NCBI GenBank assembly: GCA_902780365.1
Contig: CACZFE010000028.1
Span: forward strand, 1-32,667
Origin: an uncultured Spirochaetales bacterium
GTDB taxonomy: Bacteria; UBP6; UBA1177
Direction: 5' to 3'
Length of the DNA stretch: 32,667 nucleotides
Shown in pieces: positions 4,925 through 31,446 of the stretch (positions within the stretch are counted from its first letter, which is position 1; each line of letters begins with the position of its first letter). Position numbers and translations under genes: made by a program. The notes under the pieces were generated by a model that was given only the letters and a program-made list of their open reading frames with translations, searched no databases and had not been told where the DNA came from.

Positions 4925-6784
4925 ATGAAAAAAATCAATTTTGCACTGATTCTTCTTATCCTATGCATTGCTTCCTGTTCGTCCAAAAACGAAAAACCGG
5001 TTCCTTCAGAAGAAACCAAAACCGCTCCCGCCGCAGCCGCGAAAACGATCGTCGACTACACCGGGATCGAGACCTCGCATTCGGGTTATCTCCTTGAAAA
5101 CGGTTCAAAACTTTACATCGCAAGAAAGGAAAACGCAGCACAGCTTTATCTCGAATCGGCTGACGGAAAAGAGACTAAGCAGCTCACTTTTCTTGAAGAC
5201 GCGGTTGAAAGTTATGCTCTGAGTCCTGATGAATCGCAGCTCATATTCAGTGCGGCAAAAGGCGGGAACGAGCAGTATGATTTTTATCTTTACTCTTTCA
5301 AAACCGGAAAATACGAACCGCTTCTGGTCGATGATTCAATACGTTACGAAGATCCTACGTGGCTTAACGAAAACGAGATCTTATATGCCTCAAACGAAGC
5401 CAACGGAAAGGATTTTTATATCTATCACCTTGATATCGCTGCGAAAAAACGCACTCTTCTGGTTGAAAAGAAAGGCTTCAACAACATAAGCGACGCCCTT
5501 TCGAAAGACGATTTTCTTTTCTACACCTACGAAAGCAACATGAAAACCGTTCCCTACCGCTTCCAGAACGGCAAGGCGAAAAAAATGAAAACAGGCGACG
5601 AGAACAAAAAATATATCCCTATCGCCTATTTCGACGGCGGGATCCTGATGAAAACCAACGAAAAAAATGACATGGAATACCTTGAAATCGTTCTCGATTT
5701 CGCCAAAAAACCGGTTTTTGAGGGCAAATGGGGCGTTGAATCGGTCACTGTTGACTACAAAAGCCGCGATGAAGCCGTTTTCTGCACGAACGAGGAAGGT
5801 TACAGCAAGTGTTTCCACTACAAAAAAGGGGAGATCAAACCGCTTGATTTCGGCAGATCGCTTGTCGGGCTCAATTCGCTCAAAAACGGGAAGCTTGTTC
5901 TCAAAGTTTCTTCGGAAGGCGACATCCCTCAACCGCAAGTATTTGATTTAACTACAAAAACATTTCAGAAATTCGGTTATGTCAACGCAAACGGGATCGA
6001 TGTTTCGCTTTTTGCAACTCCAGAACTCAGAAAGGTGAAAAGTTTCGACGGCGAAGAGATCCCCTACTTCATCTATATTCCTAAAACAGGAAAAGCGCCA
6101 TACACTGTTCTCGTCAGCTTTCACGGCGGTCCGGAAGGTCAGTTCAGGCCCGGTTTCACCCCGCAGTTCCAGTATTTTCTTTCAAAAGGGATCGCCGTCG
6201 CGGCACCGAATGTCCGCGGCTCTTCCGGTTACGGCAAAAGATTTATGGACCTTGACAACTACAAACTCCGCATGAACGCAGTCAAAGACGGCGGCGCGAT
6301 TCTGGAAGACCTAGTGAAAAGCGGCATCGCAAAACCGAACACTTTTATTGCAACCGGCGGAAGTTACGGCGGTTTCATGACAGTCGCGTCGATGGCACAG
6401 TTCGCCGGCGACTACATCTGCGGAATCGACAATGTCGGAGTAGTCGATCTCATCAATTTCCTTGAAAACACCTCAAGTTACAGGCGGCACCTGCGTGAAG
6501 CCGAATACGGTCCCCTCACCGACCGTGAGTTTTTAGCTTCGATTTCACCCACGAACATGGTCGACAAGATCAAAGGAGAGCTTTTCGTTTTCCATGGAGC
6601 GAACGATCCGAGAGTTCCTGTAAGCGACGCCTACATTCTCATCGACAAGATGAAAAAAGCGGGCAAAAAAGTTCAGAAACACATTTTCGAAGACGAAGGA
6701 CACGGATATCGCAAAAAGGCGAACAGAGACATATACTTCCTTAAAAGTGCCGAATTCATTGAAAACTGCGTAAAGGCTAACTAA
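4925..6784 (+). CDS. S9 family serine peptidase (prolyl oligopeptidase / acylaminoacyl-peptidase type), lipoprotein
   Basis: 619 aa with lipobox LILCIASCSS and an N-terminal propeller-like region. The C-terminal alpha/beta hydrolase part carries the nucleophile elbow GGSYGG, Asp in HGANDPRV and His in DEGHGY. Confidence 0.85.
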   Translation: MKKINFALILLILCIASCSSKNEKPVPSEETKTAPAAAAKTIVDYTGIETSHSGYLLENGSKLYIARKENAAQLYLESADGKETKQLTFLEDAVESYALSPDESQLIFSAAKGGNEQYDFYLYSFKTGKYEPLLVDDSIRYEDPTWLNENEILYASNEANGKDFYIYHLDIAAKKRTLLVEKKGFNNISDALSKDDFLFYTYESNMKTVPYRFQNGKAKKMKTGDENKKYIPIAYFDGGILMKTNEKNDMEYLEIVLDFAKKPVFEGKWGVESVTVDYKSRDEAVFCTNEEGYSKCFHYKKGEIKPLDFGRSLVGLNSLKNGKLVLKVSSEGDIPQPQVFDLTTKTFQKFGYVNANGIDVSLFATPELRKVKSFDGEEIPYFIYIPKTGKAPYTVLVSFHGGPEGQFRPGFTPQFQYFLSKGIAVAAPNVRGSSGYGKRFMDLDNYKLRMNAVKDGGAILEDLVKSGIAKPNTFIATGGSYGGFMTVASMAQFAGDYICGIDNVGVVDLINFLENTSSYRRHLREAEYGPLTDREFLASISPTNMVDKIKGELFVFHGANDPRVPVSDAYILIDKMKKAGKKVQKHIFEDEGHGYRKKANRDIYFLKSAEFIENCVKAN

Positions 6785-8787: not shown

Positions 8788-9138
8788 TTATTTTTTCATC
8801 CGATGAAAATCTTCCGTAGCATCGTAGACAAGATTTATCGTAACAGGATCTCCTGCCGCGACAACAGATTCGGAAATTTTTTCCCCTTTTTCACTTTTTG
8901 CCGGAGCGAAAAAGAAAATAAAAAAGACGATCACAAAAACAGCGGCTACCGCCGAAACCGCTCTCGAAAGCGCGATGAATTTGGCGCGTCTTTTTCTGAT
9001 GGCAGCAGCTTCTTCAAGCCGTGCATCGATTTTTTTCTGGAATTCTTCACCGATCTCATCATCAGATTTTCTGTAGGATTTCAACAGCTTGCCGTATTCT
9101 TCAGGCATTTTTTCAAGATTTTCTCTTTCCTTTTCCAT
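8788..9138 (-). CDS. single-pass membrane protein, unknown function
   Basis: I chose the ATG at 9138, with GAGG 5 nt upstream. A charged N-terminal helix is followed by one TM segment (AVSAVAAVFVIVFFIFFFAP). Confidence 0.5.
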   Translation of the reverse strand: MEKERENLEKMPEEYGKLLKSYRKSDDEIGEEFQKKIDARLEEAAAIRKRRAKFIALSRAVSAVAAVFVIVFFIFFFAPAKSEKGEKISESVVAAGDPVTINLVYDATEDFHRMKK

Positions 9139-10629: not shown

Positions 10630-11871
10630 TCAGTCTCTTCTAAAGAAATCTCTGGTGTAGACTTTGTCTTTCACATCGTCGAGAACGGTGTCGTAGCGGT
10701 TCGCGATGATCGCGTCACAGCTTTTCTTGAAGCGTTCGATGTCGTTGACGACAAGCGAGCCGAAGAAAGTCGTGCCCTCTTCCAAAGCGGGTTCATAGAC
10801 TATCACCGTCGCACCTTTCGCCTTGATGCGCTTCATTACCCCCTGGATTGAACTCTGGCGGAAGTTGTCGCTGTTGCTTTTCATCGTGAGGCGGAAAACT
10901 CCTATCGTTATCGGGCGTTCCTTCGAGGCATTCCACATCGAAGAGCCCGTGTAATATCCGGCCTTTGCGAGCACTCTGTCGGCAATGAAATCCTTTCTCG
11001 TGCGGTTGCTTTCGACTATCGCCTGGATCAGGTTTTCAGGAACGTCGGCATAGTTTGCAAGGAGCTGTTTCGTGTCTTTCGGAAGGCAGTAGCCGCCGTA
11101 TCCGAAGGAAGGGTTGTTGTACTGGTCGCCGATCCTCGGATCCAGGCAGACTCCTTTGATGATATTCGCCGTGTCGAGCCCTTTCATTTCGGCGTATGTA
11201 TCCAGTTCGTTGAAGTAACTTACACGAAGCGCGAGGTATGTATTTGCGAAAAGTTTTACCGCCTCCGCTTCCGTAAAATCCATGAAAAGCGTCGGAACAT
11301 CCTTCTTTTCGGCACCTTCTTGCAGAAGTTTTACAAAAATCTCGGCTGCATCGCGTGTTTTTTCGTCGCATCCCGCGATTATCCTGCTCGGATAAAGGTT
11401 ATCGTAAAGCGCTTTCGACTCACGCAAAAATTCCGGACTGAAAATTATGTTCTCACTCCCCTTCTTTTCGCGGATGTGTCTCGTAAAACCTACAGGGATA
11501 GTCGATTTTATCACCATTATCGCGTTTTTGTTGACGCTCATCACAAGGTCGATGACCGCTTCTACCGCGCTCGTATCGAAGAAATTCTTCTGCGGATCGT
11601 AGTTCGTCGGAGCCGCAATAATGACAAAATCAGCATCGGCATAAGCGCTTTTCCCGTCAGTCGTCGCTTTCAGACTCAGCTCCTTTTCAGCTAAATACTT
11701 CTCGATGTAGTCATCCTGGATCGGCGACTTCTTTTCATTAAGAAGTTTCACCTTTTCAGGAACAATATCGACCGCCGTTACATCGTGATGCTGAGAGAGC
11801 AGGACAGCAAGCGAAAGCCCTACATAACCGCTTCCGGCAACAGCTATTTTCAGATCTTCGAATCTGCGCAT
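10630..11871 (-). CDS. ugd: UDP-glucose 6-dehydrogenase
   Basis: ATG at 11871 lies 5 nt after GGAGG. Contains the Rossmann motif [10 protein letters not shown] and the catalytic Cys motif [11 protein letters not shown]. Confidence 0.9.
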
Positions 11872-11884
11872 GATCACCTCCGTA

Positions 11885-12017
11885 AAAACCTCACCCTTTT
11901 TATCTCCCTCTCAGTCGCTTTGCGACAGCTCCCCCAAAGTGGGAGCCAAGCTTGCCTCTCACTCAGGGAGAGGTGGCAGCCAAAGGCTGACGGAGAGGGC
12001 AAAGAGGTCAAACCGCC
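11885..12017. repeat. Mosaic GC-rich hairpin repeats, copy B (in the putative ugd 5' leader)
   Basis: Positions 11953-11981 are identical (29/29) to the reverse complement of 29852-29880. The modules CTCAG-GTCGC-TTT-GCGAC-AGCTCCCC and GGCAGCC-AAA-GGCTG..GGAGAGGGC are colinear with copy E. Confidence 0.85.
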
Positions 12018-12048
12018 GCATTATACTGATTTTTTTAGGAAATGCGAG
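12018..12048 (-). promoter_or_regulatory. 31-nt promoter-like block facing ugd, with a TATAAT -10
   Basis: The minus strand reads CTCGCATTTCCTAAAAAAATCAGTATAATGC. This matches 31703-31733 on the plus strand at 29/31. Confidence 0.35.
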
Positions 12049-12283
12049 AGGGGATTTTATAAAGCATCATAATTTTTTTCGAATATTCTATTGCTTTTTC
12101 ACAACAACAGCATATAATGCGAATCCAGAAAGAACGTCGCCGGACAATGCGAGGGTTTTTTAACCAGCATATTTGTTATGTGGTAGTCGCACCGGGGGTT
12201 CTTTCATTTTTTTCTGCACAAAATCGTGTCTTTTTCAATTCTACGGAATCAGTCATGCGGTTTAGATTGTGGTTTTAGATTAA

Positions 12284-13189
12284 TTAAAAAATCCCTTTTC
12301 CAGATATTTTTCCTAGGACCTTTATCGCCTCGTCATAAGGAACTTTTTTGAACAATAATTTCTCTGTTGTAGCGATATAATCGGCTTTATACGGCTCTTT
12401 TTCTATAATTTCCGCAAGAAGCCTGTTGATTTCCACACCATCCTGTGCAGACAGGCAGATACTACGCTGTTTTCGTTCTTCTCTGACACGATTTACGAGC
12501 TTTTTCAAAGACTCGTCCGGCTTAACAACCTCAAGCAATTTATAAATATCGTATATGTGTCTGGAATGCTGTTCGCATTTACCGTCAAGATAGTAGTCAC
12601 ACAAAGCAAAAACTTTGTCGACAAACGTCCTTTCCGGCTTTTGGACTTTTATCGGGAACGGTCGAATATCGCTCGTATCCATAAAATCCAGCGCATTCTC
12701 TTTGCTCAGATAATCAAAAATATAATTGCCAACATTTCGCGTTTCGGTGGGATATATGCCTGTAAAAACAGCGGTTTCCACAATCAGTTTGCGGTTTACA
12801 GCGGAAAAAGCAAAAACCGACGGATAACCGATCACATAACGGTTAAAATCCCTGCGGCTGCGTATCTCGTCAAAATTCTCAAGATTCAGTCCGGAAACGT
12901 TTACAGCCTCAACAATACCTTCTTTCAGTTTTCTCCTCCGCCCTTCGGAAGGTTTCTCATTTTCTTCAAATATCGACAGATCTATGTCTTCCGAAAAACG
13001 GTCTATCAAACGGTAGCATTTTGACAACGATGTTCCGCCTTTAAAAATAATGTCAGGTACCAGTGAAGCTATGCTTCTAAGCAGCAGAGTAACATAGTAA
13101 TCCTTTTCTATAATCGCGGAGTCTATGCCGTATTCCGCAGAAACTCTGAGAAGAATATCCTCAAAAATATCACGATTTTCATGCAACAC
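12284..13189 (-). CDS. AbiEii/AbiGii-family nucleotidyltransferase toxin (type IV TA / abortive infection)
   Basis: 301 aa with the DUF1814-type motif FKGGTSLSKCYRLIDRFSEDIDLS. It is paired with an upstream AbiEi-like gene. Confidence 0.8.
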   Translation of the reverse strand: MLHENRDIFEDILLRVSAEYGIDSAIIEKDYYVTLLLRSIASLVPDIIFKGGTSLSKCYRLIDRFSEDIDLSIFEENEKPSEGRRRKLKEGIVEAVNVSGLNLENFDEIRSRRDFNRYVIGYPSVFAFSAVNRKLIVETAVFTGIYPTETRNVGNYIFDYLSKENALDFMDTSDIRPFPIKVQKPERTFVDKVFALCDYYLDGKCEQHSRHIYDIYKLLEVVKPDESLKKLVNRVREERKQRSICLSAQDGVEINRLLAEIIEKEPYKADYIATTEKLLFKKVPYDEAIKVLGKISGKGIF

Positions 13190-13796
13190 TGTATATCACC
13201 TCGCTCACAATAAGGTTTCGCATAGCCTTGTCCGGGAAAAACCGGCTGTATTCCGTAATCATGTTCCGGGTAATCCCCTTTTCTTTTATGAACCGGCAGA
13301 CCGTTTTTTTTCTTTCGTCATCAAAAAACTCTGCCGATGTGAAGTTCATCAGTTCCAGAAGTTGCATAACATCGGAATTTTCTTTTGTGATTTTCGTTCT
13401 GGAACGCCTCAGGATCACTTTCTGGGAATTGACAGAAATCTCCCTCAATTTTGTCTTCTCATTGTTGGTATAAATTTCAATGCTGTTAGGCATCTGAGTC
13501 GAGAGATTCATCAGGTTGAGCAGCGTATTTCCCGAATAATATCCAATAGTATCATTCCCGTCAGATATATATTTTTTCAGAATGACTTTTCTCGGATCAA
13601 GAAGAGTTTTCCCTAAAAAAGTCGTCTTCGGAATATAACAGACACCTTTGTCATATCTGACAATCTGCCCGTTTTTGCAAAGACGGCTCAATTCCTTGAA
13701 TATCCATGGTCTGGAATAATCCTCGAACTGGATATCACTCGTAAAAATCGGCTCGTTATAACCATATTTTTTCAACAAAAACTCATATAAACCCAT
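13179..13796 (-). CDS. AbiEi-family antitoxin / transcriptional regulator
   Basis: ATG at 13796 lies 7 nt after GGAGG. The N-terminal wHTH-like segment is ...IFKELSRLCKNGQIVRYDKGVCYIP. It overlaps the toxin gene by 11 nt. Confidence 0.75.
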   Translation of the reverse strand: MGLYEFLLKKYGYNEPIFTSDIQFEDYSRPWIFKELSRLCKNGQIVRYDKGVCYIPKTTFLGKTLLDPRKVILKKYISDGNDTIGYYSGNTLLNLMNLSTQMPNSIEIYTNNEKTKLREISVNSQKVILRRSRTKITKENSDVMQLLELMNFTSAEFFDDERKKTVCRFIKEKGITRNMITEYSRFFPDKAMRNLIVSEVIYSVA

Positions 13797-13893
13797 GGTG
13801 CGACCTCCATTTTCCACATTTTATATCATATCATACCTTGTAAGTCAATAAAAATATAATTTGCGGAGATTTAGGTGAAAAACGCATCCGTAG

Positions 13894-13915
13894 GGACGTA
13901 ACCTGATACGTCTCC
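13894..13915. repeat. GAGACG-N10-CGTC hairpin module upstream of abiEi
   Basis: GGACGTAACCTGATACGTCTCC. Over the central 20 nt its reverse complement differs by one base from 31463-31482. AAAAACGCATC lies adjacent at both sites. Confidence 0.7.
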
Positions 13916-13988
13916 AACCCAATTTTTCAATTATTTTCGATATTTTCGTGAGATTTTTGAAGAATTCCCAGAGAAAAGAGGCGTGTTT

Positions 13989-15752
13989 TTATTCCTCCAC
14001 TATCGCCCCGATATCCAAGATTCTTGAAAAATATTGTGCTCCGGCCTTTGTCAGATGTCTGCAATCCTGGCTTATGAATTTGTTGTCATCGGTAAAAACT
14101 CTGACCATGCCGTTTTCATCGCTGACAAGAGACATCAGATTTATGTAATGATCTCCGTATTTTTCTGATTCTTCCAAGTTCTGTTTCATCAAGCCTTCCG
14201 GCATTTTTACTTTCTGCCGGAAATAGCCTTCCGTGCTGCGTTTGGCATATATTATGCCGTTGGATTCACCGAAATTCTTGTTGCCGATGACATAAAGTTT
14301 TTCTTTTGGAACTGCGTTTGACATATATTCGGGAACTCCAACATAGCTTGGGCCTTCGGCATAAAAAACCATATCGGCTTTTTCAATCAGAGAGGCATAT
14401 TTTTCGACATTTTCTTCGGTATTTCTCAAATATGAAAGTTCAAGAACAGCTTTTTTATCATATTCTCGCAATATGTTCACCCAGTCTCTGCCAAAACTGT
14501 TGCCGAAAACAAGAATGTGTTTTTTTGCAGAATCTTCGAAACCGATTTTCATATGACGAGGAATATCAACATACTCTGCATGCATTCCTCTTTTGACATT
14601 GTCTTTGCTGACATTAAGTTCTGGAACATCCCTGACAACTCCGGCATTCAGATAAATCGCAAAACTTACTCCGCAAACGAGTGCCGCAAACACCAAATTG
14701 AAAATGGCGAAGTATAATCTGCTCCTCGTAGGTGATGTGAATTTATCTAATTTGGATTCAACAAAGCGGTATGAAATCTCGGAAAGGAGAATTGTTACAA
14801 TCAGAAAAACTGAGAAACTGACCGCATCCTGATTCGGGAAAACTGAATAAAATAAGAAAGCTATCACGAACTGATGCCAGATGTAGATGCTGTAGCTTCT
14901 TTTACCAAGCGCAGCGAAAAAATTAGCAAAAGCATTGAAAATTCTGTTTTGTATCTGCATATTGTTTCCGGCAAAAACAACTGCAGAAGTCGCCGCCACA
15001 ACAGCTAAAAGCATGAAAGCAGGAGAAATGATCGCAACTCTTGAGCACATCATCAAAAGAATCACAACCAAAGAAACAGCCATGATGCAAAGAGCCTTTT
15101 TGCGTGAAATCTCTTTTGCCGTCAAAGCAATCAAGCCTCCTGCAGAAAGCTCAAAAACTCTGAAAGGGAGATAGTAGAATTTCCATTCCGTAGGCAGTGG
15201 AAGCAGAAACAGAACAAGTGAAATCACACTCATAGCAACACCTGCAACCAGCAGACCTTTTTTCGTGTTTTTCAACAACTTCACACAAATGAGATACAAC
15301 AGCGGAAGAATCACATAAGCCTGCATCAGAACATCGACATACCACATGTGCATCAGCGGTTTGTAAAGATTGACGACATCCCAGTAATTTTTGGTCGTTA
15401 TCGCCTGAAGCACATTATTTGCAAAAAGTGTCGAAGCAACAGCCGACTCCGCTAGATTTTCATAATTATCAGGCAACATCGTAAAATAACCAATAACGAC
15501 AGCAACTGCAGAAACAAGCAGAATCAAAGGCCACAAACGCACAGCTTTTTTGAAGATAAAACTCCAGTAATTGAAAGTTTTTGCCTCAAATTGCTTTGAA
15601 AGCCCCTTCACAAGCAGATATCCGCTGATAACAAAAAACACATCGACACCAAGATATCCATAAGGAAACCACGCGCCGAAATGATATAAAACAACGGCGA
15701 CAATCGCCAGACCTTTAAGGAAATCGAGGATTATGGAACGGTTGGTGGACAT
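13989..15752 (-). CDS. acyltransferase family 3 O-acyltransferase with C-terminal SGNH-like domain (OafA/OatA type)
   Basis: 587 aa. The N-terminal part is a multi-TM acyltransferase_3 region (LDFLKGLAIVAVVLYHF..GVDVFFVISGYL). The C-terminal part is a soluble domain (ILVFGNSFGRDW). Confidence 0.85.
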   Translation of the reverse strand: MSTNRSIILDFLKGLAIVAVVLYHFGAWFPYGYLGVDVFFVISGYLLVKGLSKQFEAKTFNYWSFIFKKAVRLWPLILLVSAVAVVIGYFTMLPDNYENLAESAVASTLFANNVLQAITTKNYWDVVNLYKPLMHMWYVDVLMQAYVILPLLYLICVKLLKNTKKGLLVAGVAMSVISLVLFLLPLPTEWKFYYLPFRVFELSAGGLIALTAKEISRKKALCIMAVSLVVILLMMCSRVAIISPAFMLLAVVAATSAVVFAGNNMQIQNRIFNAFANFFAALGKRSYSIYIWHQFVIAFLFYSVFPNQDAVSFSVFLIVTILLSEISYRFVESKLDKFTSPTRSRLYFAIFNLVFAALVCGVSFAIYLNAGVVRDVPELNVSKDNVKRGMHAEYVDIPRHMKIGFEDSAKKHILVFGNSFGRDWVNILREYDKKAVLELSYLRNTEENVEKYASLIEKADMVFYAEGPSYVGVPEYMSNAVPKEKLYVIGNKNFGESNGIIYAKRSTEGYFRQKVKMPEGLMKQNLEESEKYGDHYINLMSLVSDENGMVRVFTDDNKFISQDCRHLTKAGAQYFSRILDIGAIVEE

Positions 15753-15822
15753 TGGGGACTCCTTTTATTTTATCAGTTTTTTTGCCACTATAATCAAATC
15801 AAGGATAGCAATCAAAAGATTC

Positions 15823-16839
15823 TTAGTTTTGAGCCTTTATCTCTTTACCAGAAAATGTCCCGTAAGGTTTTCCTGACACATCTCCAGTTTTATAATAATC
15901 TGCCAACATCTTCAAAACAATATCAATATCTTTTTCATCTTCAATGAGAAGATTGCCATTATCGACCTTCAGGTTATCTCCATATTTTTTACAAACATTT
16001 TTCATTTTGCTTATAGCCTTATCATCAATATTTCGATAATTGCCTATTCTGGCGATACGAACAAGCTTTTTATGCAATGACGGGGTTGTTTCTATTTGTT
16101 CTGCTATCTTTTCTAATCCTTTTATCTTATTGGTTTGTTTTAATTGCTCAACAACTTTTTTAGCTTCTTCCTTATACTCTTCTTGTAACCCAACAATTTG
16201 TTCAAAACACCCCTTTTTGATAACATAAAAAATTTCGTCATAATAGATGCAGTCTATTTGTTTATCAAGATTTACAGTTTCACCTTTTAGCAATTCCAAT
16301 TTTTGATTTGTTGTATCAAAGAATGTACGAATTATTCTTAACCAACTCTTCCCTTCTCGCTCATCAACAGCAACTTTACCGGATTGTATTTTTCTAAATG
16401 TATAAATCCAATCCTTGGCTGTTAAATCGTTAAAACCGACGCAATAAGCCCACAATTCATCATTGTTTTGAAGTATTGCTTCAATACTTTGCATTTTATC
16501 CGGGCTTTTTTGCAGTTGATTTGTGACGACATCGGCAAATGAGAAGACTTTATTTTTCATTGAATATGTAAACAAATGCTCTGTGTCATCAGAAATGACA
16601 TCATAATCTATCATTTCAAAGTTCTTTTTTATCGTTATATTTAATTGCTCTTGAGATAAATCATATAGATACTGCCTGATTTCATCATTGATATCTACTT
16701 GATAAACCTTGAATAGATACTTGTCCATTACCTTGCTTGATTTTTTAATGTTTTCTTTAAGCATTCTGGTAATGAAAAACAACTTAAGATCAACCACTTC
16801 AGTAGATGTAATTTTGTCCAAAATTTCTTGTAATGTCAT
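15823..16839 (-). CDS. soluble protein, KwaB (DUF4868)-like by size and context; family not verifiable here
   Basis: 338 aa with no TM segment and no catalytic motif recognised, plus a charged helical stretch LQEEYKEEAKKVVEQLKQTNKIKGLEKIAEQIE. The start overlaps the stop of the upstream 4-TM gene (ATGA). The DNA is very AT-rich. Confidence 0.5.
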   Translation of the reverse strand: MTLQEILDKITSTEVVDLKLFFITRMLKENIKKSSKVMDKYLFKVYQVDINDEIRQYLYDLSQEQLNITIKKNFEMIDYDVISDDTEHLFTYSMKNKVFSFADVVTNQLQKSPDKMQSIEAILQNNDELWAYCVGFNDLTAKDWIYTFRKIQSGKVAVDEREGKSWLRIIRTFFDTTNQKLELLKGETVNLDKQIDCIYYDEIFYVIKKGCFEQIVGLQEEYKEEAKKVVEQLKQTNKIKGLEKIAEQIETTPSLHKKLVRIARIGNYRNIDDKAISKMKNVCKKYGDNLKVDNGNLLIEDEKDIDIVLKMLADYYKTGDVSGKPYGTFSGKEIKAQN

Positions 16840-17471
16840 GTTGTTTCCCTATGTCTATCTGCAAAAAACAATTTAAAACCAATAGAGTATATTTTTACAA
16901 TACTTCCTTCTTCTATGTTTGCATTCCTCATAATAATCATTCCGCTTTTTCTTTTCCCGTTTTGCTCCTCATATTCAATTTCAAATATGGAATATTTAAA
17001 GTTTATAACCGGATTTACAAGTAACAGGCTGGAATTGATGTATATGCGGTATATAATAAATAACAAAAACAACAGAGCAAATACTTCATATACAGTATTG
17101 AAGCCTTGAAATATAAACGGGATAATGTAAGTTGCAATGTATCCTATGGAGTCGCCGTTTCTATTGGAAATTTTTATGATAGTAACATTGTCTCCATTCT
17201 TTACATTCTTTTGTAAATTAAAAAACAATAATTTACAACCAACCAAAGACAGCATGGATATGATTATGAGCAATACTGAAAGTCCAAACTTAATAAAAAA
17301 AGTCCCAACCGTTGCTTGAGAAATTCCACACCAACATAAAAATTGAGCATTGTTGCAAATCTGCTTGAATGCAATTAGTATGAACAGTGGTAAGTAGGAA
17401 GTAAGAAAAAGCACCAGTTTGGCTATTCCATACAGGTTATTATGCTTCGTTTGTTTTTCACTCGTTCCCAT
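16836..17471 (-). CDS. four-TM membrane protein, KwaA-like by architecture
   Basis: 211 aa with four hydrophobic helices: LVLFLTSYLPLFILIAF, FGLSVLLIIISMLSLVG, IGYIATYIIPFIF and VFALLFLLFIIYRIYI. A soluble tail of about 60 aa follows. Confidence 0.5.
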   Translation of the reverse strand: MGTSEKQTKHNNLYGIAKLVLFLTSYLPLFILIAFKQICNNAQFLCWCGISQATVGTFFIKFGLSVLLIIISMLSLVGCKLLFFNLQKNVKNGDNVTIIKISNRNGDSIGYIATYIIPFIFQGFNTVYEVFALLFLLFIIYRIYINSSLLLVNPVINFKYSIFEIEYEEQNGKRKSGMIIMRNANIEEGSIVKIYSIGFKLFFADRHRETT

Positions 17472-17540
17472 CTTCCATCCTTATTTCCACTACATTTTCT
17501 TCTGATTGTAAAAACTGAGCATTGTTTAATCCTATTTCCG

Positions 17541-18620
17541 TCATTTAAGAACATCCATCGTTCTTTCAATCCCTTCTTTAATTACGTAACGCGGTTTCCA
17601 TCCCAGTTTTTTAAGTTTGCTGCCATCAAGCAGAGCTTTTGTCGCCTTGCTGTATCCGGCCGCTTCGACTGCATCCGGAATCTCAAATACAACCTTTTTT
17701 CCTGCATGTTCTGCAATTATGCTGGCAAGGTCCTTAAGCATGATGTTTGATGCTTCGTCGGCAATATTGTATGCCTCTCCGTTTTCACCTTTCAAAAGCA
17801 GGAACAGAAATCCGGATATTGCATCAGCCATGTATGTGTAGGAATAATTCTGAGTTCCTGCCGACTTCAAAACGATATCTTCACCGGCGACACCTTTCTT
17901 TATGAACTGGCTTATCGCCTTTGTATCGCTCATAAGCATTGTCGGCCCGTAAGAACGCGTGAAGCGCGCAATCACAACATCAAGACCCTTCTGCGATTTA
18001 TATGCCTGACAAAGAGCTTCACCGCAGCGTTTGCTTTCAGGATAACCCGCTCTAAGCGTGTTGGAATCGATATATCCGCAGTAGTGCTCGTCAAACATTT
18101 CGATATCACCGCGGTTTTCACCATAAACTTCATTTGAAGATGCAAAAACAAATCTGGCTGCATTGTGAGCAATCGCAAAATCAAGCATATTCTGAAGCCC
18201 GATGATATTTGTGGTTATGGTTCCTATAGGATCTGTCGCATACTGCACAGGATGCGTGTTCGAAGCAAGATGCAGGACATAATCAACAGTTCCGAGATCA
18301 TCTCTTACAAAAGGCTTATTGATGTCATAAGGAATAAAAACCAGATTTTTATCTCCCCACCATTTGGAAAAACGCTCTTTTGCCTTTTCCTGCGCGCGGC
18401 CTAAAGCATAAACAGTGCAGTTGAGTCCTTCAGTATTTTTCTGCATGACAACATCAACAAAAAAGCTGCCGAGAAGACCGGTAGCACCGGACAAAAGAAC
18501 AGATTTGTTCTGAAGTTTTTCCCATGGGATGTTTATGTTCGCGATATTAGTCAAATCTTTGACATAAAGTTGATTGTCATAAAGTGTTGTCAATTGTTTT
18601 TCCTCGTGTTTAGCGTTCAT
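17541..18620 (-). CDS. NAD-dependent epimerase/dehydratase (extended SDR)
   Basis: 359 aa with the glycine-rich motif LLSGATGLLGSF and the catalytic YPESK (YxxxK). Confidence 0.85.
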   Translation of the reverse strand: MNAKHEEKQLTTLYDNQLYVKDLTNIANINIPWEKLQNKSVLLSGATGLLGSFFVDVVMQKNTEGLNCTVYALGRAQEKAKERFSKWWGDKNLVFIPYDINKPFVRDDLGTVDYVLHLASNTHPVQYATDPIGTITTNIIGLQNMLDFAIAHNAARFVFASSNEVYGENRGDIEMFDEHYCGYIDSNTLRAGYPESKRCGEALCQAYKSQKGLDVVIARFTRSYGPTMLMSDTKAISQFIKKGVAGEDIVLKSAGTQNYSYTYMADAISGFLFLLLKGENGEAYNIADEASNIMLKDLASIIAEHAGKKVVFEIPDAVEAAGYSKATKALLDGSKLKKLGWKPRYVIKEGIERTMDVLK

Positions 18621-19680
18621 CTTTTCTTTGCAGGATTTCTATGTTTTCACAAGTTCTTGATGAGTTGATATCAAACCTGTTTTCGTTAAAAACGAATCTT
18701 CTTATAAATGCTTTAAGCAGATTTTTTCTTCTTGCGAAGAACATGGATTTATAAGCCAAATCCTCATTGTATGGCATAATCTCTGCAATATCCGCTATAG
18801 GATTGTAGTCATCTTCCAAAACAGACATTCCACTGTCAAAACCTGTAAATTCTTTGCATTTTTCGACCAAGCCATTCCTTATTTTCATAAAAGCAGTTGG
18901 ATTAGACGGAGGATTATTAACATCGTAAACTTGCGGGTTTGCAATGAAATCCTTTTTATCCACAATATTCAAACATTCCTCAAGACCATCGAAACGTGTT
19001 TTTGCATCATAGTTATCTTGTTTGATCACACAGACAGGCGTTCCGAATGCCGTTGATGGAAGAGCTGCATGCAGAGCAATAGTAACAACACAATGAGCAT
19101 TATGATATAAAAACAATGTAAACTTGGCCATCCTTATCCTTTGTTCATAAGAAAAGCAGACTTTCTGCTCTCTGCCGATACAAATTACCCTTTTATTTGT
19201 GCGTGATTTTATTGCTTTAACTACCTCATCTGGAACATCTACGCAGAGAATATAGCCATCAATAAACTTATGTTTTAAAGAAGGATTCGGCAATAAGGTG
19301 GTGGTCATACAACCAGTAAAATAAGCATCAATTCCTTTTGAACGTAAAAATTCCGCTGTTCCTTTGTCTCTGCATCCTATAGGTTCATGCTGCTTGAAAT
19401 ATTGAATATTCTTTTTATTCATAAATTTGTCATTTCTGAGACGATATTGCAGATGAAAAGAGACAAATAAAGGATTTATGGATGAAGCTGGAGGAAAATG
19501 TTTGCCCTCCCACAACCACCAATGGTTCATAATCAAAGATACTGGGGATTCACATTTGAACTCATCTATCCGCTCTCGATGAATTAAGTAATCAACTTTC
19601 GGCAAAAAACGAAAAGCCGCAAGACATTGAACTTCATCACCGATGTTAAATGATGACGTAGTTAAAAGACCATATTTCAT
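18610..19680 (-). CDS. polysaccharide pyruvyl transferase family protein
   Basis: 356 aa with an N-terminal SFNIGDEVQ motif typical of the PS_pyruv_trans family. The glycan-operon context fits. Confidence 0.65.
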   Translation of the reverse strand: MKYGLLTTSSFNIGDEVQCLAAFRFLPKVDYLIHRERIDEFKCESPVSLIMNHWWLWEGKHFPPASSINPLFVSFHLQYRLRNDKFMNKKNIQYFKQHEPIGCRDKGTAEFLRSKGIDAYFTGCMTTTLLPNPSLKHKFIDGYILCVDVPDEVVKAIKSRTNKRVICIGREQKVCFSYEQRIRMAKFTLFLYHNAHCVVTIALHAALPSTAFGTPVCVIKQDNYDAKTRFDGLEECLNIVDKKDFIANPQVYDVNNPPSNPTAFMKIRNGLVEKCKEFTGFDSGMSVLEDDYNPIADIAEIMPYNEDLAYKSMFFARRKNLLKAFIRRFVFNENRFDINSSRTCENIEILQRKDER

Positions 19681-20409: not shown

Positions 20410-21219
20410 TTATCCCTCCTTGTCTGAATATTTCGCATACGGGGTCGTTAAATCAAGATAATAACCATGGTGAGAAACCCTTTTTTCCTCTGGAGGCAAC
20501 TTTCTCCAGTCACCATATATATTTTTCAGATAATCTTCTGCCTGTTCAGGTCCAAATATCTTTGTATCTTCAAAATCGTATAAAGTTGGCTTAGAAAAGT
20601 CGGAAAGAGGCACTATTTCCTTAAGTCCCCATGCTCCCACCAAATTACCACCCCAAACCGCCGTTTTATACGGCACTTTTTGACAAACTTCATTGATTTT
20701 TTGCGACAACTTTTTCTCAGAAATTATAAAATTGGGAACTGCTTGAGCAAGAAACAGCAAAGCATTTTTATAAAAACTTCTGCCCTTTTTAAGCTTGATT
20801 TGCCTTAATGCCAAAAGATTCAATTTATTCTGAATTACCTTGTAATTGCTCTTGGCTTCTTCCTTGGAATTTCCCAGCCCGTCAAGTGGAAAAATGTCCA
20901 GATAAACTCCGCGAACCAATTTGTTTTTCACATTTTCTATCAAAGTCGTCTGAGTGTCATAGAGTTTGCAATAAGGACAGCAGTAATTCGGATCATTCGA
21001 AAGCGGAGTTTCTAGGAGATATCTGTCATCAATTTTTTGATTACTCAGCAATGTTATCAACAAGTTATAATCTTCACGCGGAATCCCGAGATCTATGTCG
21101 TCATCCCATGGGATAAACCCCTTGTGCCGCAATGCTCCAAGCAATGTCCCGCCTAAAGCGTAATATCTGATATTGTGCTCAACACAATAACTATGAAATG
21201 CTTTTAACATGGTTAACAA
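20410..21219 (-). CDS. licD: LicD-family phosphotransferase
   Basis: 269 aa with the LicD signature GGTLLGALRHKGFIPWDDDIDLG. Confidence 0.85.
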   Translation of the reverse strand: MLTMLKAFHSYCVEHNIRYYALGGTLLGALRHKGFIPWDDDIDLGIPREDYNLLITLLSNQKIDDRYLLETPLSNDPNYCCPYCKLYDTQTTLIENVKNKLVRGVYLDIFPLDGLGNSKEEAKSNYKVIQNKLNLLALRQIKLKKGRSFYKNALLFLAQAVPNFIISEKKLSQKINEVCQKVPYKTAVWGGNLVGAWGLKEIVPLSDFSKPTLYDFEDTKIFGPEQAEDYLKNIYGDWRKLPPEEKRVSHHGYYLDLTTPYAKYSDKEG

Positions 21220-22373
21220 ACATCGCTGATCAAGTTAAAGCAATTCAAACCGATAAGGACAAGTAAAACTAAAACTTGAAAAACTGCGGAAGTTACTGTT
21301 GTTGCGGTTACTTGTTTCTGTTTATTTATTGCTCCCAATGTCGGCCAGCCATAAATCATGGAAAGAAAACCAAAAAACATTACCGGAGTCAGCAAACGTA
21401 ACAAATATGAGGCCTCTGTGTATTTAGCCCCACCTACAATCAAAAGAGCTTCTTTGGCTACCAAAAAAGTAAATATGCAACCTACAGCAATTATCGGCAG
21501 GAAAATTTTTACAGTTTTCTGAATTATACTGCGCTTTTTAGAAAGAACCATCTGAGGATAAATTCCCGATATAATAGGAGTGTAGAAAGATTGAACTGCT
21601 CCTATTATTTGCGCGCAGACGCTCCAATATGCAACATTCACCGGATCTATAAAAATACCTATGAGCAAAGTGTTTAACGCACCGAAGGCTGATGTGGCCA
21701 TATTAGATACAAAATATACGGCCGAATCTTTCAATTTTTTTACCGCAGAGCGCAATCCGTCGGGACAGATCTTTACGTTCAGTTTTTTCAACTGAATCCA
21801 GACAAGAACTATTGCTACCATGGAGCCTATGATATTCAGAATCGGGATCCAAAGGATATCCGCGTCGCTTCTAACGACAACGAAAGTCAGCAAAGTTGCA
21901 ATCCCGCGCATAACAACAAAACGGATCGTGATGATCTCCATTTTCTCAATACCACGGAAATAAAAATCCATCAGAAAAACTGTGAGGAATACCGTCACGA
22001 AGGAAAGCACCGTATAAAGCATATTTTGATTGAGAATTGGAATAAAAATCATAGCTGCAATCAATATGACAAAAGCAAATAAACATAGGATCAGACGTGC
22101 AACAAAAATATTTCCGATTTCACGGTTTATTTCATCCTGTTTTCCCAAAACCAGAACAATGGCTTTTGTTCCCGAAAGCATGAAACCAAAATCCACCATC
22201 AACTGCATATATTGCATCGTAGCTTTCACATAAGATACAACACCATAAGTCTCCACGCTAAGAACACGTGTCAAATACGGCAGAGTAACAAGAGGGAATA
22301 CCATTTTGGCAATGTTCAACAAATAGAGCATAGAAACATTTTTTACAATTTTGTTTTTAGAGGTTTGCATCAA
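21213..22373 (-). CDS. wzx: oligosaccharide flippase (Wzx / MOP superfamily)
   Basis: 386 aa, polytopic. The N-terminus KNVSMLYLLNIAKMVFPLVTLPYLTRVLSVETYG is typical of Wzx. Confidence 0.75.
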   Translation of the reverse strand: MMQTSKNKIVKNVSMLYLLNIAKMVFPLVTLPYLTRVLSVETYGVVSYVKATMQYMQLMVDFGFMLSGTKAIVLVLGKQDEINREIGNIFVARLILCLFAFVILIAAMIFIPILNQNMLYTVLSFVTVFLTVFLMDFYFRGIEKMEIITIRFVVMRGIATLLTFVVVRSDADILWIPILNIIGSMVAIVLVWIQLKKLNVKICPDGLRSAVKKLKDSAVYFVSNMATSAFGALNTLLIGIFIDPVNVAYWSVCAQIIGAVQSFYTPIISGIYPQMVLSKKRSIIQKTVKIFLPIIAVGCIFTFLVAKEALLIVGGAKYTEASYLLRLLTPVMFFGFLSMIYGWPTLGAINKQKQVTATTVTSAVFQVLVLLVLIGLNCFNLISDVC

Positions 22374-28568: not shown

Positions 28569-29525
28569 TCAACACTTTCCATCCGAATACCCTTGATAAG
28601 CTGATTTCAGAATCTTCTCAAATCGGATTCTGATTCCCTGCTTATAATATTCCTTCCTGACTGCACTGCAAATCGGAATCCCTTCATAGGATTCAGGAAC
28701 ATCATCAATCAGTTTATATATATCCTGAAGATGGTTTTCTATCAGCGGAACATTTCTTTTTACAGCATCCCGCAAACCCGGGCAATCCATCATAATAAGT
28801 TTTGGACCGCTGAGAATATGACCATCTACTTCATAAGCCGTTACTGAAGCCCCCAGAACATCTCTCTCCAACTTATCTTTTTGCATATGCATTACTATTT
28901 GTTCATCCGATGTTTTATTGGAAAAAGCGTTCCCGTTATCATACACAGGAGCTATTTTGTAAATTTCCCCATTGAAAACCAACCCCCAGTTGCCGTTATT
29001 CCGATCATTGTTATCGATAAGAATATCAACAACCACCATGTCCCAAAAATGTTCCTTCAAGCCTTCGACATTTTTGAGATGACGATTCTCTTCCAAATGA
29101 AACAAAAGCTCCGGCAGATTTACTCTGTCACCTGATTTTGATTCAGCAAAACCCTCAAGTTCTTCTGTCCGTTCTTCACTATACGCATTTTTTATTGTGC
29201 GTATTTCAGACAATCCTCCGCGAATTACGCAAAAATCCTTGCAGGCAACAACTACTTTGCCTTTCTTTATGCCAAGCAGCGTCTTGTGGACATCGTAGCC
29301 CAGAATCTCGTAGACATGACTCCCGAGATATTCCGACAGCGGTGCGGTCGTATAGGAAATATTACGAGCATTATTCCTCATTCCTCGAGTAGTCTTAGGA
29401 TACTTTATAAACCAAAACTCCCCGTCAATCAGTATACCGTCTTTGTTTCCGCCATTACCACCGTATATTCCGTCACGGTTGCTGAGAGGAAAAAGTTTTT
29501 CGTCATCAAAATTGTATATCTGCAT
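28569..29525 (-). CDS. HipA-family (HipA_C-like) Ser/Thr kinase, putative toxin
   Basis: I chose the ATG at 29525; the track ORF begins at an upstream GTG. 318 aa with the G-rich loop YGGNGGNKDG, the catalytic-loop-like ILIDNNDRNNGNWGLVF, and KIAPVYDNGNAF matching the HipA AP-x-YD motif. Confidence 0.6.
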   Translation of the reverse strand: MQIYNFDDEKLFPLSNRDGIYGGNGGNKDGILIDGEFWFIKYPKTTRGMRNNARNISYTTAPLSEYLGSHVYEILGYDVHKTLLGIKKGKVVVACKDFCVIRGGLSEIRTIKNAYSEERTEELEGFAESKSGDRVNLPELLFHLEENRHLKNVEGLKEHFWDMVVVDILIDNNDRNNGNWGLVFNGEIYKIAPVYDNGNAFSNKTSDEQIVMHMQKDKLERDVLGASVTAYEVDGHILSGPKLIMMDCPGLRDAVKRNVPLIENHLQDIYKLIDDVPESYEGIPICSAVRKEYYKQGIRIRFEKILKSAYQGYSDGKC

Positions 29526-29527
29526 TT

Positions 29528-29761
29528 TTACCACTCCGGGTATCTGGAGACAATAATATCCCACTGTTTTTGATTCATATGCCCACTGGCTACAGATGCT
29601 TTGCACAACATATCTACGGCTCTTGCCATACCGAAATACTGCGGATCGCCTTCCCGATCATATCTTTCGCAGTCTTCGATTGTATTTCTAAGCACTTCGC
29701 CATGAATAGGGAATTCGATTTTTACATCATCATTGATCCAACGGTATTGCACTGATCTCAT
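29528..29761 (-). CDS. 77-aa protein of unknown family, candidate cognate antitoxin/partner of the kinase
   Basis: AAGGAG lies 6 nt upstream of the ATG at 29761. Its stop TAA (29528-29530) is 2 nt from the kinase ATG. No HTH is recognisable. Confidence 0.5.
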   Translation of the reverse strand: MRSVQYRWINDDVKIEFPIHGEVLRNTIEDCERYDREGDPQYFGMARAVDMLCKASVASGHMNQKQWDIIVSRYPEW

Positions 29762-29980
29762 TTACATCTCCTTTCTATTCCCCTCGCCTTTTGAAGACAT
29801 TTGACCCCTCAGACAACCTGCGGTTGCCGTATAGCCCTCTCCGGCAGCCCCGGCTGCCACCTCTCCCTGAGTGAGAGGCAGGGAAAGACTTGGCCCGCCC
29901 TTCTCAGCTCCTACTTCAGGGGAGCCTATAGAGGTGCCCGCATTGTATGCCGCCATAATTATAGTGATAGTCGGTGTCAT
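29762..29980 (-). pseudogene. Orphan GT2 5' stub fused to repeat copy D
   Basis: Encodes MTPTITIIMAAYNAGTS, close to the N-terminus of the intact GT2 (ITIIMAAYNAGTS), followed only by repeat-derived sequence. It ends with TAA directly before the 77-aa gene ATG. Its start overlaps the upstream gene stop (ATGA). Confidence 0.6.
29778..29935. repeat. Mosaic GC-rich hairpin repeats, copy D
   Basis: 29852-29880 is the reverse complement of 11953-11981 (29/29). 29803-29828 is the reverse complement of 31673-31698 (24/26, both mismatches in the hairpin loop). 29780-29792 is identical to 28434-28446. Confidence 0.85.
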
Positions 29981-31446
29981 TTTTCAACCACCTCCCAATG
30001 ACCGCCTTTGTCTGGACCGATACGGCGGATAAGATTTTCTTTTTGCATTTCGCTCAACATCTTTTTGACAGTCGTATGACCTAATCCCAGTTCTTCTTCC
30101 AATTTTACTATTGTGATAAAACTATCGTTTTTAATGGCGGCAAGTATTTGGCGGATTTTTTCTGGCCACTTTTCTGGCCACTTTTCTGGCCATTTTTCTA
30201 TTTTCTGGTCACTTTCTGTACCCTTTTCATTTCCCTGTATATTTCCTTCCTCTCCGGCATTCAATTCAAAAGGTGCGGCATCTATCTTGTTGAACGGAAT
30301 TGTGACTACGATAAAATTCTTTTTGACAGCGATTGTATCGCGTCCGTATGCCTTGACGATCGTTGGAACACCGCGCCCTGAACGCTCGCTAAGCCTGAGC
30401 TGAAGGAAAATCGAGGCAAGTGCTTCGTTTACGGGAATGCTGACTCCATTATAAAAACCTTCTAGATCCTGTTCGATTCCAAGCCCGCCGTGGGAGACGA
30501 TTTCTATTCTGTCGGTGAACACGCTTATCATCGGGGCATTCATGGCAAGCCATTTGTTGTGAATGAAAGCATTCAAAAGTGCTTCGTGGAAAGCCTCGTA
30601 ATCAAAAAGAGGAACATCTTTGCGTTCCGAAATACGCCCGCGTTCGTCAGCCTGAATGATGTTTATAGCGTCGCCGTATTCCAGTATTTTATCCATGGAA
30701 TACAAAATGCAGGAATTTCCGTATTCTTTCACGGAAAAAAGAGTGTCAGCCTTGGTTTTTCCGCTGAAAACAGAAACGCGGATCGGAATATCATTTGAAT
30801 CGGCAAGCAGGAGTGCCATTATGTTGTAGCGGCCGTCTGCTGTCAGCAGTTTGAGCGTTTTCTTAAAGGTGTCACGTCTGAGTCTGATCCCTTTTGCACC
30901 GTAATACAAAAAGAGTTTCTCGAAAGTCAGATCCTGCGCATAATCAGGTGAGGCAGTGTTCACGATAGTAGGAATTCCGTTTGAAAGCACGTTCAGCAGA
31001 CGGATTTCCCACTCCGGAAATTTTGAAATCTTTTCCTTGCTTGAACCTATCCGGATAAACGTCTGGTTCATGAACTTTGTCGGAACGGATTTCGCGGCAG
31101 GAACAGTCAGCAAAACAATTCTTTTGCCGGAAATTTCAGCTTCATCGACTTCAAACGCAAGACTCGGCTTTAAGTGGCGTGCAAGGTAATGTTTGTAAGG
31201 TTCGTGCTCGATATCCTTGTCGAAATTAACCGTTGTTCCGGTAATTTCATGCGTTTTGTCACTCACACCCCAGACAATATAGCCGTATTCCCGCCCGCTC
31301 AAAGCCGCGCCGTTGGAAATCGCGGAAATATATTCACCGATTTCGTCCTTTGAAAACCAGTTCTCTTTGAAATCGAGCCATTCGTATTCGTGCGGAAGCA
31401 AAATCAGGTTCGTGACAGTGTCAATTATGTTGAGGGCGGGTGTCAT
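29977..31446 (-). CDS. AlbA_2 (Schlafen-like) / HATPase_c_4-like / C-terminal wHTH protein, of the class often annotated as RecG-like transcriptional regulator
   Basis: 489 aa. N-terminal HEYEWLDFKENW...AISNGAALSGREYGYIVWGV. Middle FHEALLNAFIHNKWLAMNAPMISVFTDRIEIVSHGGL. C-terminal ITIVKLEEELGLGHTTVKKMLSEMQKENLIRRIG. AAGGAG RBS is present. Confidence 0.8.
   Translation of the reverse strand: MTPALNIIDTVTNLILLPHEYEWLDFKENWFSKDEIGEYISAISNGAALSGREYGYIVWGVSDKTHEITGTTVNFDKDIEHEPYKHYLARHLKPSLAFEVDEAEISGKRIVLLTVPAAKSVPTKFMNQTFIRIGSSKEKISKFPEWEIRLLNVLSNGIPTIVNTASPDYAQDLTFEKLFLYYGAKGIRLRRDTFKKTLKLLTADGRYNIMALLLADSNDIPIRVSVFSGKTKADTLFSVKEYGNSCILYSMDKILEYGDAINIIQADERGRISERKDVPLFDYEAFHEALLNAFIHNKWLAMNAPMISVFTDRIEIVSHGGLGIEQDLEGFYNGVSIPVNEALASIFLQLRLSERSGRGVPTIVKAYGRDTIAVKKNFIVVTIPFNKIDAAPFELNAGEEGNIQGNEKGTESDQKIEKWPEKWPEKWPEKIRQILAAIKNDSFITIVKLEEELGLGHTTVKKMLSEMQKENLIRRIGPDKGGHWEVVEK
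30158..30193. repeat. 12-nt tandem repeat x3 (TTTTCTGGCCAC), coding (EKWP)3
   Basis: Units at 30158-30169, 30170-30181 and 30182-30193 (last base differs), followed by a degenerate copy. It lies in the linker before the wHTH. Confidence 0.9.

Follow-up and report, generated by a model that had tools for sequence, protein, structure and literature searches.

The 32,667-nt stretch analyzed here (the window; contig CACZFE010000028.1 from an uncultured Spirochaetales bacterium) contains a pair of minus-strand genes, kwaA and kwaB, that belong to the Kiwa defence families. The pair very likely constitutes an intact Kiwa anti-phage (and probably anti-conjugation) system that this ruminant-gut bacterium gained by horizontal transfer of just the two genes, and whose present site is the hypervariable 3' part of a surface-polysaccharide locus of the Wzx/Wzy type. 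This reading is based on family membership by sequence and fold, the conserved pairing of the two genes, purifying selection, foreign base composition, the boundaries of the module and the defence-island context of the homologues. The cassette comprises the following features:

16836-17471, minus strand: kwaA, 211 amino acids (aa), a membrane protein with four transmembrane (TM) helices and a cytoplasmic β-rich C-terminal domain; Kiwa sensor subunit.
15823-16839, minus strand: kwaB, 338 aa, soluble, with a C-terminal DUF4868 domain; by homology, the Kiwa DNA-binding effector subunit.
16836-16839, minus strand: ATGA in which the kwaB start codon overlaps the kwaA stop codon, with the sequence reading 'aacaacATGAcatta'; translational coupling.
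17472-17540, minus strand: 69-nt spacer separating kwaA from the SDR gene; a Shine-Dalgarno (SD)-like AAGGA lies 6 nt 5' of the ATG.
15753-15822, minus strand: 70-nt spacer separating the AT3 gene from kwaB; AAGGAG lies ahead of the AT3 start.
15823-17443, minus strand: horizontally shared module, defined by nucleotide similarity (blastn) to the nearest Kiwa loci.

The first-pass annotation, made from the letters of the window, had described two minus-strand open reading frames (ORFs) with an ATGA overlap, and its coordinates and sizes proved exact. It had also called the cassette the most AT-rich stretch of the window. Indeed, the GC minimum of the 1-kb profile falls on the cassette, with values of 0.305 (16001-17000) and 0.311 (16501-17500). 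The GC content is 0.316 for kwaA and 0.311 for kwaB, with 0.330 and 0.286, respectively, at third codon positions (GC3). By comparison, GC3 ranges from 0.50 to 0.59 for the core genes, which occupy the left end of the window, and from 0.31 to 0.54 for the glycan genes. The gene order SDR-kwaA-kwaB-AT3 is real and common to diverged strains. Parts of it are present in six independent assemblies, two of them only 95.6-96.8% identical at the DNA level, so the junctions are not an assembly artefact.

The 211-aa protein matched the PADLOC KwaA model PDLC00212 with E = 5e-73 (residues 9-207 on positions 3-203 of 205), as well as 12 further PADLOC KwaA models. A protein identical to it carries the PF28043 (KwaA) tag in public precomputed annotation. 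When a profile built from 31 KwaA relatives was compared with the PDB, only the solved KwaA chains (9mrg/9mrr/9mrx) were matched; the match to 9mrg_A (E = 1.7e-11) covered 15-190 of the 207 positions. The AlphaFold (AF2) model of KwaA had a predicted local distance difference test score (pLDDT) of 78 and a predicted template modelling score (pTM) of 0.66. It contains four long helices (residues 5-47, 52-92, 105-120 and 127-145), a β-strand in the TM2-TM3 loop (94-102) and four C-terminal β-strands (161-168, 174-181, 191-198 and 201-206). In a crude hydropathy scan, three strong TM cores and a weaker one were detected. Hydropathy and model thus agree with the original description of a four-TM protein with a soluble tail, and profile and model together give the four TM helices and the β-strand-rich loop and C terminus of the Kiwa β-barrel topology. 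The seven best matches of the model in a Foldseek search of the PDB were all KwaA chains (9mrx_A, 9mrr and 9mrg), with E-values of 2e-6 to 1e-3 and TM-scores of 0.45-0.59, and the eighth match had an E-value of 0.32.

The 338-aa protein matched the PADLOC KwaB model PDLC00223 with E = 4.2e-124 (residues 1-337 on positions 2-337 of 339), along with seven other PADLOC KwaB models. Its residues 128-318 matched positions 3-182 of 186 of Pfam PF16162 (KwaB/DUF4868) with 71.6 bits, where the gathering cut-off is 26.3 bits, and the PF16162 tag is attached to an identical protein in public precomputed annotation. The AF2 model of KwaB had a pLDDT of 66 and a pTM of 0.57. In Foldseek, its sole PDB matches with E ≤ 0.001 were the KwaB structures 9mtn, 9nyu and 9mrx_D (E = 3e-6 to 2e-5, probability 1.00, 337-358 aligned columns), and the next match had E = 0.26. 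Therefore, the profile searches gave strong matches to both KwaA and KwaB/DUF4868, and the structural searches returned solved KwaA and KwaB chains as the only significant matches.

Some of the results weigh against this reading. The KwaB model is mediocre, as its pLDDT of 66 indicates, and its global TM-scores of 0.32-0.38 and root-mean-square deviations of 13-16 Å are poor; the structural match of this predicted two-domain model represents fold recognition via a local structural alphabet, with poor rigid superposition. When KwaB was compared with the PDB by sequence, no KwaB match was obtained, whether the query was the protein itself or a 21-sequence profile. This KwaB subfamily is too divergent for detection in the PDB by sequence only, and structure prediction followed by Foldseek was therefore needed. 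Identity to the Escherichia coli proteins in the Foldseek alignments is also low (11-15% for KwaB and 16-19% for KwaA). Finally, except for an AbiE pair one gene away, the immediate neighbours of the cassette are glycan genes and not defence genes.

PADLOC, Pfam, Foldseek and the neighbourhoods of the homologues all agree that the pair is KwaA/KwaB (Kiwa, DUF4868), as had been proposed in the first-pass annotation. The fallback offered there, an uncharacterised membrane sensor/effector pair, is moot because the 338-aa protein is KwaB/DUF4868. The pair is already annotated by standard tools (PADLOC, Pfam PF16162/PF28043) and is an ordinary member of the Kiwa family. It is extremely unlikely that the two genes have no role in defence and instead encode a membrane protein and a soluble partner for glycan export, modification or regulation. 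The sole point for such a role is the location within the glycan locus. Both proteins belong to Kiwa families by sequence and fold, and neither has a glycan-related Pfam domain at E ≤ 1, whereas all the surrounding genes have one. Moreover, the homologues in the eight clusters sampled (described below) were not found in glycan loci.

Purifying selection acts on both Kiwa genes, with ratios of non-synonymous to synonymous substitution (dN/dS) of 0.10-0.25 for kwaA and 0.05-0.10 for kwaB. Compared with the window, the diverged strains L004 and L005 show 99.8-100% DNA identity across kwaA, kwaB and both spacers (100% for the SDR-kwaA spacer in L004), whereas AT3 is only 92% identical. The low dN/dS (0.05-0.25), together with near-complete conservation where the neighbouring AT3 has diverged, indicates that function has been retained. 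It is very unlikely that the pair is silent or decaying cargo, unexpressed or no longer working in this host. The strongly foreign composition would fit such cargo, as would the lack of a recognisable promoter of its own. However, the sigma-70 promoter scan of positions 11800-19000 was at chance level (21 found, 20.1 expected from shuffled sequence) with nothing in either spacer, and it neither shows nor excludes an own promoter. Two apparent disruptive deletions in other genes of the window, relative to sister assemblies, point in the same direction because they suggest that the lineage tolerates gene decay. In contrast, both Kiwa ORFs are full length against the profiles, and the SD-like sites and the ATGA coupling are intact (strong SD sites are used by the window genes). 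In addition, seven or more contigs, drawn from several samples, encode the identical KwaB protein.

The protein collection contained 860 relatives of KwaB and 436 of KwaA. Among the matches listed, PF28043 was present on all 120 KwaA relatives and PF16162 on all 120 KwaB relatives. The named relatives among these matches were nearly all from Bacteroidota (Dysgonomonas, Porphyromonadaceae, Paludibacteraceae, Prolixibacteraceae, Flavobacterium, Myroides and Bacteroides), with one from Erysipelotrichales. Genomic context was sampled for eight other KwaB clusters, from 93% down to 70% identity (loci L007-L015 and L095-L105). In every locus of all eight clusters, kwaA was directly upstream of kwaB. 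All eight were set in a defence island or mobile element, and a polysaccharide operon was the setting of none (0/8). The homologues thus lie in defence islands or mobile elements.

KwaB identity to the window copy is 93% in L007 and L008, 88% in L013-L015, and 86% in L010-L012, L099 and L100. The nearest loci have the same gene sizes and equally close spacing as the window, and their nucleotide identity to it (~79-90%) is confined to kwaA-kwaB. By blastn, the window is 89.9% identical to L007 over 1621 nt and 89.3% identical to L008. In both, the shared similarity begins near the tenth kwaA codon and terminates precisely with the stop codon of kwaB, and the flanks are without similarity. The GC content of the nearest-relative modules is 0.29-0.30, and that of the Kiwa clade is 0.27-0.31 whatever the host, compared to 0.38-0.52 for the flanks (L007, L010, L013, L095 and L096). 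As members of the clade have low GC in all sampled hosts, the AT-richness seen in the window belongs to the mobile module.

Horizontal origin of the pair is indicated by its GC3 of 0.29-0.33 against 0.50-0.59 in the core genes, by the confinement of similarity to 15823-17443 and by the existence of related glycan loci without Kiwa. Transfer between phyla is likely, although not proven, because the named relatives of the module are mostly Bacteroidota. As for other genes of the window, the relatives of the SDR and IspD genes come from ruminant-gut metagenome-assembled genomes (MAGs) and from MAGs of Ruminococcaceae and Lachnospiraceae (Clostridia). The core S9 peptidase gene (4925-6784, plus strand) has only unclassified bacterial relatives down to ~47% identity, followed by distant ones from Planctomycetota/Phycisphaerae at 36-38%. 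A clostridial host, suggested by the SDR and IspD relatives and by the strong SD sites, was considered and dropped, since genes for glycans are readily transferred.

In four of the sampled clusters (L007-L015, L099 and L100), the Kiwa pair lies from a few to ~22 nt 3' of a methyltransferase gene and a specificity-subunit gene (M-S pair). These methyltransferases combine an HSDR_N_2 nuclease-like N terminus with N6_Mtase/Eco57I domains, and no separate R subunit was seen near the M-S pairs of these four clusters. As the M-S pairs belong to three different PADLOC methyltransferase families (PDLC03034, PDLC03318 and PDLC03018), they suggest a repeated, possibly non-random association with this Kiwa clade. 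Further neighbours in the four clusters include YoeB/Phd, ToxN, AbiEii, PDC-S14, NA37 and AAA_15/DUF4276. Of the other clusters, one adjoins GmrSD/NACHT/putAbiC, another a Gabija-like OLD+UvrD pair, an adenosine deaminase and SymE, another integrases with RhuM and HEPN, and another TIR/SLFN-helicase/Vsr/Fic. RADAR-like genes are also among the neighbours in the eight clusters.

The cassette was originally placed, on the same strand, between an SDR gene and an acyltransferase gene within a polysaccharide locus, and both flanks were confirmed. The neighbouring genes that bear on its setting are:

17541-18620, minus strand: SDR epimerase/dehydratase gene, the upstream flank of kwaA.
13989-15752, minus strand: AT3 acyltransferase gene, the downstream flank of kwaB.
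12284-13817, minus strand: AbiEi/AbiEii pair, another defence system, separated from the cassette by one gene and situated between the AT3 and UDP-glucose dehydrogenase genes.
18610-19680, minus strand: polysaccharide pyruvyl-transferase-like gene, between the IspD-like and SDR genes; GC 0.358, GC3 0.31.

The minus-strand genes upstream of the cassette encode a GT1 glycosyltransferase, a Wzy-like polymerase, a Wzx flippase, LicD, an IspD-like cytidylyltransferase and the pyruvyl-transferase-like protein, and the AbiEi/AbiEii pair and UDP-glucose dehydrogenase are encoded downstream in the locus. AbiEi matched PADLOC PDLC02236 (E = 3.3e-63), and AbiEii matched PADLOC PDLC02292 (E = 1.3e-84) and Pfam PF08843 (107 bits). 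The loci most closely related to the glycan locus, L037 and L016, come from gut MAGs of reindeer and red deer. L037 has six genes in common with the window at 83-98% aa identity, and in L016 the IspD and SDR proteins are 95% and 90% identical, respectively. Downstream of SDR, both loci have other cargo and are without kwaA, kwaB, AT3 and AbiE. The loci found with the SDR protein each had different cargo downstream of SDR, and the relatives of AT3 (68-72% identity) had no SDR or Kiwa genes nearby. Kiwa is therefore absent from related glycan loci. Scans of genomes with the SDR protein and of metagenomes with AT3 turned up no clean empty site, with SDR followed directly by AT3, and the precise pre-insertion junction was not located.

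In the comparison with L004 and L005, the kwaB-AT3 spacer is 100% identical but AT3 only 92%, which makes the AT3 start an allele-exchange/recombination breakpoint. Joint travel of AT3 with Kiwa was considered and rejected, as no homologue locus has an adjacent AT3 gene and the AT3 of L004/L005 is another allele. Glycan O-acylation may itself be a variable phage-receptor trait. In L016-L021, L037 and L054, where IspD is 78-98% identical, IspD is followed directly by SDR without the pyruvyl-transferase-like gene, apparently a further insertion in this mosaic locus. Thus, recombination has made the 3' part of the glycan locus a mosaic, with Kiwa and AbiE as separate insertions.

Because cassette and glycan genes share a strand, with gaps of 69 and 70 nt and no terminator-like hairpin, read-through transcription from the glycan operon, and with it the co-expression suggested in the first-pass annotation, is plausible on sequence grounds. 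Such read-through probably accounts for at least part of the transcription of the cassette. The intrinsic-terminator scan of positions 11800-19000 gave 6 candidates, compared to 5.0 expected from shuffled sequence, and none was in either spacer. These features would also suit a receptor-plus-sensor unit, in which Kiwa would be co-transcribed or co-regulated with the surface glycan, or tuned to phages that use this glycan. The near-identity (99.8-100%) of both genes and both spacers in strains that differ elsewhere in the locus fits such a unit as well. So does the escape of phage tail-fibre mutants from E. coli Kiwa, which links activation to the receptor-binding step (PMC11785009). However, none of the eight other homologue clusters is in a polysaccharide operon, and the closest related glycan loci are without Kiwa. 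Since the boundaries of the module are those of its coding sequences, no regulatory DNA came along with it. Furthermore, glycan loci are generally mosaic in their variable parts; in the present one, insertion or exchange also seems to have brought in the pyruvyl-transferase-like gene, AbiE and the divergent allele of AT3. On balance, a receptor-plus-sensor unit is unlikely. The same holds for the related view that Kiwa was captured into the glycan operon and came under the polysaccharide promoter, with the sensor made in step with the receptor glycan, to which we give an equally low probability. If it were true, the near-invariant cassette and spacers beside an 8%-different AT3 would reflect selection for the arrangement. 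Given that no other sampled member of the clade is in a glycan locus and that the closest glycan loci have no Kiwa, the co-location of Kiwa and glycan genes is most likely incidental, the cassette having landed in a recombination-prone region. When the literature was searched for defence systems within capsule loci, only general papers on defence hotspots turned up.

Some observations concern other parts of the locus. Relative to L001 and L002, which are independent assemblies otherwise 99.98-100% identical to the window, ~140 nt are missing at ~21213-21229 (the wzx/licD junction), with 5-nt microhomology. As a result, the last 29 residues of Wzx are replaced by 4, and licD is without its ribosome-binding site, start codon and first 10 codons. 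The gap reflects either genuine strain variation, in which the glycan operon is damaged, or an error of assembly. Compared to L001, 49 nt are also missing at 8808/8809, which affects the gene starting at 9138 (minus strand); its product, a 203-aa predicted membrane-anchored protein without a Pfam domain, is frameshifted after residue 110 and ends at a premature stop. At the upstream edge of the glycan locus, two defence-like genes are located at 28569-29606 and 29977-31446 (both minus strand). One encodes a HipA-like kinase (PADLOC candidate PDC-M03A, E = 1e-18). The other encodes a protein with SLFN/AlbA_2, HATPase_c_4 and wHTH domains and a weak PDC-S50 match; this SLFN gene is kept at the same place in L037 (84% aa identity).

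The Kiwa system of E. coli forms a supercomplex of KwaA tetramers and KwaB dimers that is triggered at the membrane, whereupon KwaB binds DNA and stalls replication (PMC11785009). Phage tail-fibre mutants escape it, so that activation starts outside the cell, and DNA mimics such as lambda Gam inhibit KwaB (PMC11785009). Kiwa of Streptococcus thermophilus protects against lactococcal phages and thus works in a Gram-positive, monoderm host (PMC11514479). For the window pair, we infer complex formation, trigger, DNA binding and defence phenotype by homology, with E. coli Kiwa as the model. KwaA tetramers in the cytoplasmic membrane would recruit KwaB dimers into an extended supercomplex. Membrane distortion, caused by phage attachment and DNA ejection or by docking of a conjugative pilus, would activate this complex. 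Activated KwaB would then bind the incoming DNA via DUF4868 and stall replication forks, and late transcription would thereby be prevented. The cell would survive, so the predicted response is not abortive infection. The C-terminal half of KwaB in this clade contains invariant basic positions, e.g., R149, K150, K155, K180 and H256-K257-K258; the DNA-contact residues of E. coli KwaB are R142, R167, K187, R233, N134 and D169. The interface between the two E. coli proteins involves K75, N77, Y181 and F183 of KwaA and R21 and P100-Q103 of KwaB.

The window pair shares the kwaA-to-kwaB operon with the Kiwa systems of E. coli O55:H7/ECOR (9mrg, 9mrr, 9mrx, 9mtn and 9nyu). In both, KwaA has four TM helices and a cytoplasmic β-rich domain, and KwaB has an N-terminal α/β domain followed by the C-terminal DUF4868 domain. 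However, the window pair belongs to a very divergent subfamily (best models PDLC00212/PDLC00223; 11-19% identity) whose named relatives are almost all from Bacteroidota, and its KwaB is ~23 residues longer than that of E. coli. Whereas E. coli Kiwa is found on a prophage, plasmid or genomic island, the window copy is in a polysaccharide locus. This setting also differs from the CRISPR3-associated defence island that houses Kiwa of S. thermophilus 90730 (PMC11514479). Compared to its nearest relatives, in which the pair follows methyltransferase and specificity-subunit genes, the window pair follows an SDR sugar-nucleotide gene. The logic of Kiwa resembles that of Zorya (ZorAB) and other membrane-anchored sensors, which couple the detection of envelope perturbation to a cytoplasmic, DNA-directed effector. 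In contrast to this functional similarity, no sequence or fold relationship to Zorya was found, and there were no PADLOC Zorya matches.

The main value of these results is validation, as Kiwa had been recognised correctly from gene size, order and topology in a sequence-only reading. The system itself is ordinary, and its location is unusual but probably incidental. Kiwa systems are mobile and spread horizontally (PMC11785009), and the window makes a modest contribution: a very AT-rich Kiwa clade, centred on Bacteroidota, travels as nothing more than the two genes and can lodge in the variable part of a surface-polysaccharide locus, beside an AbiE pair. If the cassette were co-regulated with the glycan, it would be an example of receptor expression tied to post-adsorption immunity. 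The presence of both Kiwa and AbiE in one polysaccharide locus indicates that such loci can be collecting points for defence genes.

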